DNA from: a bacterium
GTDB taxonomy: Bacteria > UBA8248
NCBI GenBank assembly: GCA_965207065.1
Contig: OZ242260.1
Span: 2,112,001-2,176,000, forward strand
Direction of reading: 5' to 3'
DNA length: 64,000 nt
This document shows positions 33,001-36,000 of this stretch, one piece after another. How positions within the stretch are numbered: position 1 is the stretch's first letter; every line of letters begins with the position of its first letter. A program made the position numbers.

Positions 33001-36000
33001 AGCGTTTCCGCGACGGCCAGGCGCGGGTCCTGGTGGCGACCGATATCGCGGCCCGCGGCATCGATGTGGATTCCGTCAGCCATGTCATCAATTACGAACT
33101 CCCCAATGAGCCGGAAAATTATGTCCACCGTATCGGGCGGACTGCGCGGGCCGGTGCGTGCGGTGCGGCGATTGCCTTTTGCGATCCGAGCGAGCAGGCT
33201 TATCTGAGCGATATCGAAAAACTGATCGAGTGCCGGTTGACGGTGATTGGTGACGAACCCGCTCCGGTCGATCCCAGGCTGGACCCACCGGATCAGAGTG
33301 GCAGGCGCAGACCTGAAGGCAGAACCCGGAAGCCCCGTAACAGACTTGAACTCAAGACCGGCCGGCCCGGTAGAAACCGTCATCGCAATCGATACGCGAG
33401 AAGCGGAGGAAAGCCGGCGGCCTGAAGCGGCATCGTCATCCCCAATACAGGCCGGCGTTTCTTACTGTGCGTCGCGCCGATGTTCGCCAAATCGCTGAAA
33501 ACGCAGGACTTGTGTCCTGGCGAACCGCCGCGGAACACGGCCTGTGGCTCTTCTGGGAGAAGCACGACTAGCGTTTTCCGCGCATTTCACACCCGCAATT
33601 CCCCGCATTTGCCGTCATCGAGGGAGTCGCTGTCCATGGCAGAATTCTCCTGCGCCCGGATTCCGCGGTGTCATTTCCCAGGAAAATAAATTGCTTGAAA
33701 TTTACCGATAAACCCCGTGAATTTATCTGAAATTATCGATATTTCCAGAAATTCCTTATTCTCGGACGCTACGATGCGCTCCGCCATCATACACGCGCGC
33801 GTCCTGAGTCCCACCACGGCAAATGCGGGGTAATGCGCCTTGCTCATGATGCAATATTTCTGAAATCCGTGTGTAGTTGACGAGCGTAATTAAAGGGTTC
33901 GACGGCTGAATCGGAAGGATCCCTCCGGGCGGGGAGATAGAATCAAACCCGACCGGCGAGGGAAGGATCGCCGACTGACGAGGCGTGGAAGCAGGCTGCC
34001 TCGATTCCGCCCGGGCAGGACGCCAACATGGGCATTCCTTATCGGCGCCTGTCCTCTCTGTGAAGACAGCGGCTGTAGAACCGGCATACATGCGGGGAAG
34101 GAGGACTCATCGGCTCGCCGGGCTGATGGCGGGTATGGCGGAGAGGAGCGCCCGGGTGCATGGAATGCGCCTGCGTTCGAGTCGCCACCCTCGCCGATGA
34201 ACGCGTGGACGCCCTCGGCAAGTTGAACAAGTCCCGCATCCGAACCATTCGTCATATCAAATCCTTATTCTACGGACTTCCGATCGCGACACGAACCCGG
34301 GGTCAAACAGCGAGGTTTTCTCGCAGCGTCTTGCCCTCATAGGATTTCCTGTACCTCCCCCGTCTTTGCAGTTCGGGAACCAGGTGGTCCACGATGTTGA
34401 GCATAATCTCGCGCGGCCCGGCCTGGGATTGCTTGACCATGAAGCCGCCGCGACTCCCGGTCGCTTCGAACATCTCTTCGAGACGGTCGGCAATCTGCGC
34501 CGCCGTTCCGGTGAACGCGGTGGCGTAACCCGTTGCCGCCTCGAGTCCATGCCGGAAGAATTCCTCGCGATCGATCTCGGCGTGCTCGCCATATTTGTGG
34601 GCCAGCAGATTGACGAAGCCCACCGGGGAGGCCTGCGCGGCGACGATTCGTTCCTGAAGTTCCGCCAGGGAGAATCGCGGCGGCAGTTTGGACATGTCGT
34701 AGCCGGTATTGTGGGACAGCCATGCCCCGACGGCTTCCATGGGCACGTCGGAGATCAGCGCTTCTCGCAGGGCATGCGCCTGTTCCTCGGTTTCACCGAC
34801 GATGGCCCTGAGCGACCATAAGATGCCGACCTCCTGCGGGTCCCGTCCCTCTGCGAGGAGGGCGTCATCGAGGTCTTGTCTTTGCTTCACCATGAGCGGC
34901 AACGTCTTGGTTCTGCCGAAAACATGATCGGCGACATGAGCGGCGCCTTGGATCCCGCGCGGAGAGCCTCCGGCCTGTATGATTACGGGACTGCCCTGGG
35001 GAGAGGGAACGACGCTGAGAGGCCCCTTGACCTTGAAAAACTTCCCCTCGTGGTTGATCGGATGAACTTTGGCGGGGTCGGCGATTTGGCCCGAAGCCTT
35101 GTCCCAGAGGAAAGCATCCGCCTCGACGCTGTTCCAGAGCGCCCGACAGACGTCGATAAACTCTTCCAGCCGCTCGTAGCGCTCACCATGGTCCGGAAGC
35201 CCGTCGTAGCCATAGTTCGCAAAATCGGAACGGCGCGCCGAGGTGATGACGTTAAAGGCCATGCGGCCGTTGGTGATATGGTCCATGGAATTCAGAAGGC
35301 GCGCCGTATAAAAAGGGTGCATAAAGCTGGATGAGTACGTCAAACCGAACCCGAGATGCCTGGTGACGCGCGACATCGCGACAATCCACGGACTCATGTC
35401 GAATCTCGGCCATGCAACGCCGTAGCTGACCGCATCGTCAATCGAGTCTTTCCACATGTCGGGTATGCCCGTCGAGTCTCCCAGGAAGATGAGGTCGAGA
35501 CCGCCGCGCTCCGCGACGCGCGCAACTTCCTCGAACAGCCCGATATTGGGGTGGTGGCGGTCTACCCACGAACCCGGATTCCTCCAATTGGTCTCCACCT
35601 CGGTCCACGAGATATCAAATGCCAATTGGATGCGCTTCTTCATCTAGTTTTCCTCGGGATATGACAATTTCTCTCACCCTCGCCGATAAGCCGACGTTGT
35701 CCGAAATTCTCGATTTGGCATCTTTGCGGCGAAGTTTACTACGGCTGGAAGCGACCTTCCAGACCGGGCCTGATCGAGCCGTAGCCGAGAGTTGGTGAAC
35801 AGGAAAATGGTTTCCCTCCCTTATCTGCCGCACTCGAATCGAGTGAAAAGTGATTACAACACCGTAAGAAGATTGAGTTGGAATTTCAGAATCGCATTTT
35901 ATGCGAATCGGGCGCCGTCATGGGGCATGGCAGGTGGATCCTGAACGGATGTTGCGGGAGAGTGGAGCACAACATGAAGTAAGCTCTTCCAGTTCGGACT

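Follow-up and report, generated by a model that had tools for sequence, protein, structure and literature searches.

Oriented intergenic repeat arrays that tile a bacterial chromosome as candidate packaging sites of a vertically inherited gene transfer agent

On its 4.48-Mb contig, the genome of an uncultured symbiont bacterium of the Nitrospinota (G000) carries 67 intergenic sites at which a short, polar array of direct repeats recurs. The arrays occur together with an intact gene set for a gene transfer agent (GTA)-like particle, they are spaced according to their orientation, the GC content of the genes ahead of them is raised in a gradient, and accessory genes turn over on their forward side. 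We infer, with a probability of roughly 0.6, that the arrays are pac sites of a host-domesticated, non-replicating GTA, from which one-way headful packaging would be launched; that they are, at the least, polar starts of GTA-linked transfer of some kind appears quite probable. The fullest version of this reading, in which dozens of host-kept, oriented pac arrays descend from terS, are renewed in concert and let the GTA export most of the chromosome in one direction, has in our judgement a little better than an even chance of being correct. A preliminary description of this DNA had already linked the element to the GTA and guessed at a packaging site, and both ideas gain support from the polarity, the tiling, the GC sawtooth and the one-sided hotspot of cargo reported below, which together reveal, indirectly, the polar effect decaying with distance that is expected of a pac site.

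The window analyzed here, a 64,000-nucleotide stretch of the contig, contains one such element in the intergenic region 33580-33850, which has a DEAD-box helicase gene on its left and a luciferase-like monooxygenase gene on its right. Its parts follow each other in the order box, -10 hexamer, array, -10 hexamer, box, with both putative promoters facing inward. The array (about 33689-33755, plus strand), delimited with a position matrix over 62 cores, consists of 6-7 helically phased units with a T-tract per 10/11 bp, includes a 15-bp core recognized by pattern matching (33713-33727, plus strand) and points to higher coordinates. On its left lies a box of two 10-bp units (33592-33610, plus strand), a motif also present upstream of the GTA-like operons, which is accompanied by a third, partial unit (33580-33587, plus strand) and by a -10-like hexamer without a -35 element (33640-33645, plus strand). 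On its right, a second -10-like hexamer (33786-33791, minus strand) is paired with a box directed back at the array (33821-33839, minus strand); the activity of both promoters is predicted from these motifs.

The conserved upstream neighbour of the element is a methyltransferase gene (31082-31684, plus strand). The box arm and the array come immediately after this gene in 11 relatives whose array is of the G000 type, as does a variant array in G001. In G000, a 1.7-kb accessory cassette (31775-33479, plus strand) with the helicase gene (32070-33425) sits between two copies of a 197-bp direct repeat that are identical at 186 of 197 positions. The first copy (31585-31781, plus strand) spans the 3' end of the methyltransferase gene and the left arm, with a box at 31705, and has no array in G000; the second (33472-33668, plus strand) runs into the array. 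Contigs from two other samples contain about 430 additional bases before the helicase cassette, with left-arm sequence, which suggests that the first copy formerly had an array of its own. A second accessory cassette, with the monooxygenase gene (34303-35643), occupies 34182-35700 on the minus strand. Across the zone ahead of the array (33756-64000, plus strand) GC content at fourfold-degenerate sites is 0.78-0.95 per gene, and it is 0.67-0.84 for the genes behind (1-33425). The stretch is present in sequencing runs labelled sponge metagenome, and Nitrospinota is the origin of the named homologues of a linked protein. The 24 public runs listed consist of contigs; depth over positions 24001-43900 of the window, taken from four runs, showed no interpretable step.

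Across the contig, the core occurs 49 times exactly, 62 times with at most one mismatch and 71 times with at most two (68 clusters), against 0, 0 and 3 occurrences of the reversed pattern. The 62 cores and 68 clusters, as well as the counts of cores per genome, reproduce those given in the preliminary description, and the repeat element is real and intergenic (genes of G000 were called with a simple in-house predictor). The matrix over the 62 cores describes a polar 60-bp array in which units at -24, -14, +7, +17, +27 and +37, repeating at 10/11 bp, surround a unique spacer, and the 67 sites mentioned above are those exceeding the matrix cut-off. Inward-facing boxes with a -10 hexamer are also confirmed, although the counts claimed before (46 of 68 sites, 10 with both sides) become 42 of 67 and 8 under our stricter rule. 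Because the other 25 arrays have no such promoter, the promoters are not the essential part of the element. REP/BIME sequences, MITEs, DUS/USS, Chi and KOPS are all dispersed non-coding repeats, Chi and KOPS being polar. The arrays differ from REP/BIME sequences and MITEs, as had been noted, in that direct repeats with variable arms take the place of a palindrome and no terminal repeats are present, and the sites are orthologous between genomes, with no recent species-specific spread; they differ from Chi and KOPS in being far longer, rarer and not oriented by replichore.

The same box, with a -10 hexamer about 27 nt downstream, precedes five operons, at contig positions 422-428 kb (protease-capsid, neck and tail tube), 437-441 kb (TerL in two ORFs, and portal), 457-458 kb (a winged-helix-like ORF and TerS, the latter at 457190-457762), 459-460 kb (holin and endolysin) and 2480-2487 kb (tail genes with the tape measure). 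The host genome hence contains head, tail, terminase, portal and lysis genes at several loci, which is the composition expected of a GTA. Two early ORFs of 81 and 129 aa (463-464 kb) lie behind a sigma-70-type promoter and an array, the latter within the leader of this early operon; the 129-aa product (463412-463801) is Xis/Cox/AlpA-like (atlas score 0.90), which we take as a lead, and the 81-aa product has no confident relative. By ancestry, TerS belongs to the Mu gp27 family and the split TerL to the gpA family. The capsid gene is single-copy in 20 of the 22 other genomes of the genus, TerS and the 129-aa protein are each encoded in 31 of 40 family genomes, and the GTA genes adjoin the same host neighbours across genomes, with dN/dS values of 0.10-0.34 against G020 and G007 and dS similar to that of host genes. 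The GTA-like set is vertically inherited and under purifying selection. No integrase or replication genes were found in or beside the GTA operons; a search for a Mu transposase, which had no positive control, was uninformative. An HK97-type prophage remnant at 3877-3887 kb is unrelated and without the box.

The match between the promoters of the elements and those of the operons, together with the array in the early leader, raises the question of whether the elements are purely regulatory, either as convergent promoters for small RNAs or antisense transcripts or as decoys titrating a GTA activator. However, neither hallmark of a structured small RNA was observed: Rfam searches matched only a 6S RNA and a TPP riboswitch, with no family for the element, and the elements fold no better than shuffled sequences (z -0.8, -1.6 and 0.0). 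With 25 of the 67 arrays devoid of a promoter and neither polarity nor gradient accounted for, regulation as the sole function is very improbable. Searches of 50,697 phage records and of IMG/VR gave no match to the element, and IMG/VR yielded no relative of TerS with the patterns used. Recent IS-like repeats are not enriched ahead of the arrays (3 of 67 sites, versus 4 of 67 behind). tRNA genes were considered as the actual sites and rejected, the nearest being 1.25 kb away.

The spacing of neighbouring arrays depends on their relative orientation. Convergent neighbours are 49-155 kb apart (median 93 kb, n=18), back-to-back neighbours 2.5-59 kb (median 16 kb, n=17) and co-directional neighbours 25-245 kb (n=31), a contrast as extreme as which was obtained in none of 100,000 strand permutations (p<1e-5). 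The 30-kb runs ahead of every site hardly overlap, covering a fraction of 0.445 of the contig out of a possible 0.449. The orientation rule holds in six of seven close relatives (G002, G006, G008, G011, G013 and G022; p 0.00005-0.03), these tests being not independent since the relatives share sites. It is not significant in G015 (p=0.18, 26 sites) or in G001 (p=0.43, 27 sites), in both of which the patterns used probably miss sites. Arrays built of other units, described below, obey it as well in G007 (p=0.013), G004 (p=0.045 and 0.003) and G020 (p=0.001), the last showing near-perfect alternation of 13 convergent gaps of 108-228 kb with 12 back-to-back gaps of 2-80 kb. Thus, the arrays are directional and tile the chromosome. 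Large convergent domains with back-to-back borders are, at the same time, what would be expected of polar barriers, and the arrays could be host sites for chromosome organization or recombination control, where an SMC-like or helicase machine is loaded or stopped in a polar manner; the GC pattern would then stem from repair or mutation, and the GTA box would be a by-product. Array orientation shows no replichore bias, which speaks against such host sites; the lineages that have lost the GTA, discussed below, bear on them further.

Base composition follows the same polarity. Fourfold-site GC averages 0.863 in the 12 kb ahead of the arrays and 0.792 behind, is higher ahead at 54 of 62 sites, and correlates with position to an extent that none of 2000 strand permutations matched. 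The profile is a sawtooth: GC is 0.876 within 300 bp behind the array and 0.76 at 4-5 kb behind, remains at 0.86-0.88 up to 14 kb ahead and is about 0.80 at 55-60 kb, the enrichment ahead fading across about 55 kb. Around 393 array-free intergenic regions the profile is flat. Artefacts of replichore, coding strand and gene ends were rejected, the sawtooth being equal on both strands and both replichores and present also in short intergenic DNA, and there is no strand skew ahead of the arrays. In G007, the sawtooth was found at 17 of 18 sites, and at nine sites where G007 has an array and G000 has the same genes with none between them it was seen at 8 of 9 in G007 versus 5 of 9 in G000 (p=0.004). 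The GC pattern follows the array rather than the genes. In G009, which has no GTA, the trend on the same genes is weaker (rho -0.18 versus -0.41; 245 orthologues, 400 kb) and GC is lower. A model of exposure explains just 11% of the GC variance in 2-kb bins.

There are no headful-sized steps in the gradient, and such smooth decay fits an alternative in which the arrays are one-way replication or nicking origins of an iteron-like kind that amplify the DNA ahead when the GTA is induced, with packaging itself being unselective, as at the run-off origin of Bartonella. AT-rich DNA with phased direct repeats and promoters on its flanks does resemble an iteron or R-loop origin, and polarity, tiling and gradient are all predicted equally by this reading. 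However, neither the box-driven operons nor the two early ORFs that were examined include a gene for an initiator, primase or helicase, a promoter co-directional with the array, as an origin would call for, exists at just 22 of 67 sites, and in G027 the motif is terS coding DNA (see below). We consider origins unlikely, though not negligible as an explanation.

The chromosome is conserved behind the arrays and exchanges cargo ahead of them. Among 1-kb windows behind the arrays of G011, 202 of 209 have a match in G000, 166 of them syntenic with an array; ahead, the corresponding numbers are 144 of 209 and 73, several being syntenic with a different array, and 108 of 110 control windows have a match. 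The same one-sidedness, together with inversions between back-to-back arrays, was seen at 20 more loci in six genomes, located around close pairs. Synteny breaks, which had been reported earlier for two sites, are on one side only. In 25 orthologous pairs, the orthologue was the best match for 14 upstream arms and for 4 downstream arms, as would be expected if arms were exchanged between sites. Both cassettes of the window have been mobile in this way. The helicase cassette recurs in G014 and G022 ahead of different arrays, in copies that are 92-97% identical, exceeding the 81-89% of the neighbouring gene; the monooxygenase cassette recurs at other array sites of G002, G011 and G013, within about 0.2-0.7 kb on the forward side. 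Cassette copies away from arrays also occur, in G004 (helicase cassette, no array) and at second loci in G022 and G014.

Cargo could instead arrive by site-specific integration, the arrays being attachment sites or what is left of mobile elements, integrative or non-autonomous. A tandem tyrosine-integrase family has 10 copies in G000. Two of them lie at half-arrays that are interrupted at an identical point, and one of these two forms a 68-kb island whose empty site is found in G011; some array sites, moreover, are lineage-specific. However, the other eight copies sit elsewhere, the array positions of G000 are old ones that other genomes share, the elements have neither a target duplication nor a terminal repeat in common, and integration predicts neither the orientation rule nor a 55-kb GC gradient on conserved genes. 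It is more likely that integrase islands exploit the array sites, and we regard attachment sites as a quite improbable explanation. Conjugative transfer is likewise polar and decays with distance, and the islands of G000 hold a TrwC relaxase and VirB4-like genes, as might be expected if the arrays were chromosomal copies of oriT acting in an Hfr-like manner. All carriers should then encode a relaxase and a type IV coupling system, but no VirB4/TraG-family ATPase turned up in G001, G004, G007 or G020, all of which bear arrays (three of nine genomes were positive), and the arrays have no oriT-type inverted repeat; this explanation is scarcely credible.

When the DNA beside the boxes was read in genomes scored as core-less, arrays with different 10-bp units emerged, numbering 52 in G007, at least 23 in G001, about 45 in G004, 29 in G020 and 17 in G027, a member of another genus. 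Each unit is nearly private to its own genome (reversed controls, 0), and what unites them is a T-tract on one strand at each turn of the helix. Of 11 arrays examined in G020, seven adjoin a gene that flanks an array in G000, with one differing in orientation; the positions are thus older than the units, which have been replaced in concert. G007 has, in addition, many sites of its own. In G011, where 30 of 53 matches were taken with their flanks and one proved to be a chance match in a gene, 24 of the 30 share their upstream neighbour with a G000 array. The preliminary description was right in that the sites at 211 kb and 3329 kb have counterparts in G020, but its view of recent spread to mostly species-specific positions is contradicted by this extent of orthology in G011 and G020. 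It had also concluded that the element is not required, as G016 and G020 have no core. This objection falls because G020, like G007, G004 and G001, has units of its own, and because the GTA of G016 is damaged: the portal gene is frameshifted, holin and endolysin are missing at the locus, and the N-terminal domain of TerS is deleted, as it is in a second database protein.

The arrays degenerate in lineages whose GTA is lost or broken. No array was found in G016. Capsid, TerS and the 129-aa protein are all missing from G009 and G010, which keep only remnants of arrays; in G010, the GTA genes have been cleanly deleted among intact host neighbours and the boxes have decayed, and G009 has one array-like stretch (13 motif matches versus 3 in controls) and shares with G000 one degenerate array before clpB. 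A unit-free scan for phased T-tracts recovered 48 of the 67 G000 arrays but also 27 other peaks per Mb, and is therefore too noisy to prove absence in G009, G010 and G016. G004 retains its arrays despite a one-base frameshift in terS, which may be an assembly error. The survival of decayed arrays and of a weak GC trend in G009 and G010, and the sharing of the degenerate array before clpB, would suit host sites for chromosome organization or recombination control. Yet the decay upon GTA loss or breakage and the wholesale change of the unit between lineages, unlike the sites of conserved host proteins, are not what such sites would show, and the movement of cargo between them would stay unexplained, making a host function of this kind distinctly unlikely.

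The N-terminal three-helix domain of TerS, modelled at pLDDT 81-93, is confidently predicted to be a helical domain of DNA-binding type (helix-turn-helix); the best match in a fold search with the model was a small terminase, at a non-significant E=0.77. Among 22 close homologues, the turn and recognition helix form the most variable block (entropy 1.16 versus 0.10). A counterpoint is that the recognition helix also differs between close homologues for which a single unit is probably common. G027 has 17 motif copies, one of which is the stretch that encodes this turn in a TerS paralogue that is intact and preceded by a box promoter; others read as decayed terS starts, and the orthologous TerS of this genome has lost its N-terminal domain. 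When the arrays were compared with a terS profile from which the G027 paralogue had been excluded, the turn block scored best of 42 block-orientation pairs for G027 (p=0.005, 4 copies) and G001 (p=0.03, 7 near-identical copies), and the tests were not significant for the arrays of G000, G004, G007 and G020. As a lead from these sequence resemblances, the elements may be relics of a box promoter joined to the start of terS. Packaging by P22 and SPP1 follows the reading direction of terS; the forward direction of the arrays and the GC gradient run opposite to the terS sense.

In the mechanism that we propose, a Cox/Xis-like protein would, upon induction, bind the boxes and switch on the operons. 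A small-terminase ring would bind the phased, probably bent array, the large terminase would cut at the array or as far as a few kb behind, and heads would be filled in succession in the forward direction. Recipients would recombine the packaged DNA, and frequent recombination ahead of the sites would raise GC through biased gene conversion. Fragments starting in an element could pair with any other copy, so that cargo would move between sites and the repeat unit would be homogenized within a lineage, and facing sites less than about 50 kb apart would be redundant and not kept.

Several known systems resemble this one in part. Pac-like sites of P22 on the Salmonella chromosome are oriented; packaging and transduction of the DNA downstream are raised about 100-fold, an effect that decays, a region enclosed by two convergent sites is highly mobilized, and the pac site of P22 lies within terS (PMC11260489). 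There, nine short sites, some of them inside genes, serve an autonomous phage and their function has been shown (PMC11260489), whereas here 29-67 dedicated intergenic arrays would serve a host-kept, non-replicating machine, tile the chromosome and change their unit by lineage. In the same source, the cuts of phage ES18 are spread over 1 kb (PMC11260489); the 4-kb shoulder behind our arrays would need cuts beyond that range, or some backward packaging. Lateral transduction by prophages and PICIs is, in the portions of the reports cited, likewise one-way, processive headful packaging in situ, with accessory islands gathering downstream in the packaging direction, as here, but it needs an integrated, replicating prophage or island at attB and involves about 10 sites with a reach of 300-500 kb (PMC8575950, PMC12829572). 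The present sites have no prophage and a reach of about 55 kb from dozens of positions.

The gene set is most readily compared with RcGTA, DsGTA, CcGTA and BaGTA, which also have several virion loci, vertically kept, with lysis genes and, in the passages cited, no replication genes found (PMC11841831, PMC5786225). The TerS proteins of known GTAs are described there as having no DNA-binding domain and needing no initiation site (PMC11841831), and the packaged DNA as forming symmetric peaks without motifs, the bias of BaGTA being due to one run-off origin (PMC11841831, PMC5786225). The present system departs from this description, as its TerS keeps the domain, its sites are motif-defined and polar, and its gene set has another ancestry. 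The pac site of SPP1/SF6 is similar in that direct repeats and promoters lie at the terS start and, as far as the source consulted describes it, a ring of weak helix-turn-helix domains selects intrinsically bent DNA; it differs in being a single site per phage genome, with binding shown (PMC4737164). With such a ring choosing bent DNA, a changing unit with fixed phasing would be tolerated. A literature search, to which most subscription journals were outside scope, retrieved no account of such sites in a GTA, nor any of a Nitrospinota GTA.

The arrays bear on the way in which GTAs select their DNA and on their weight in genome evolution in nature. The reviewed view is that there are no start sites; here, an uncultured symbiont lineage would offer sites that are polar, defined by a motif and marked by a lasting footprint of transfer in the genome. 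The packaging reading makes a sharp prediction, namely read starts and one-way decay at 67 named positions. It would also chart how recombination rate varies along a natural chromosome, so that GC-biased gene conversion in bacteria could be tested, and give a signature by which GTAs that homology searches overlook could be recognized; given the 55-kb GC sawtooth, the system could, if the reading is true, be found in other genomes from composition alone. The authors of the P22 work, in the part cited, suggest that pac-like sites could come to organize genomes (PMC11260489), and the arrays would be an actual case of what was speculated for Salmonella. If so, the GTA would have shaped gene order itself, with cargo docking ahead of every site and a sheltered zone behind it.

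Two tandem tyrosine-integrase islands of the source genome (contig positions 1130974-1198761 and 2371499) have each inserted inside an array, a polar run of about 60 bp made of 10/11-bp repeat units, at the identical point of the array. The locus corresponding to the first of these, a 68-kb island, is an empty site in the compared genome G011. A TrwC relaxase is encoded close to the second island. A small HK97-type prophage or satellite remnant, which carries integrase, capsid and protease genes, lies at 3877-3887 kb of the same contig and is separate from the gene-transfer-agent-like (GTA) gene set.

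A degenerate array at contig position 4272180 is located in the leader of a clpB-dnaK-dnaJ-MerR-type operon and is retained in G009, a genome without the GTA. Four genomes, G002, G008, G011 and G022, carry a plus-strand array at a nearly identical coordinate (near C1:1304500-1304900); the flanks of these arrays match differing sites of the source genome, and we take the shared coordinate to be a coincidence.

Within the window, positions 30462-31619, just behind the element, diverge by approximately 6% from the source genome in contigs of two other samples, compared to approximately 1% further upstream, and may represent an imported tract. Other high-copy intergenic repeats, at ~36000-36700, 37700-37950 and 41400-41750, reach a contig-overlay depth of hundreds to thousands and are unrelated to the array. 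The window also includes a 6S RNA (4401-4583) and a TPP riboswitch (49494-49594).

The two ends of the source contig (1-13826 and 4461249-4475074) form a 13.8-kb inverted repeat with 100% identity, which is either an assembly artefact or a real inversion; the GC skew is consistent with a circular chromosome with its origin near dnaA, at 1.25 Mb. The G016 bin (8-Mb assembly) is probably contaminated, given that its contig C18 (L267, L268) holds repetitive, eukaryote-like DNA.

The gpA-family large terminase of the source genome is encoded by two overlapping ORFs (438866-440562), corresponding to the ATPase and nuclease parts. The same two-ORF form was found in G001, G007, G016 and G020, and the split is thus conserved. 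Sequences resembling the small terminase, TerS, number 2-5 in each of the genomes of other genera (G027 [L265, L266], G023, G046, G048, G052 and G055). In G027, the TerS orthologue lacks the N-terminal domain, and a stand-alone paralogue under a box promoter, of the type preceding GTA-like operons, contains it.

The leader of the early GTA operon (464095-464235, minus strand; L004:14095-14235) folds into a long stem enclosing an inner hairpin, which is kept across five genomes with compensatory changes at 4 of the 27 pairs. No match to this stem was found in Rfam, and its 5' part is still present in the GTA-less genome G010. The stem is possibly a regulatory RNA.
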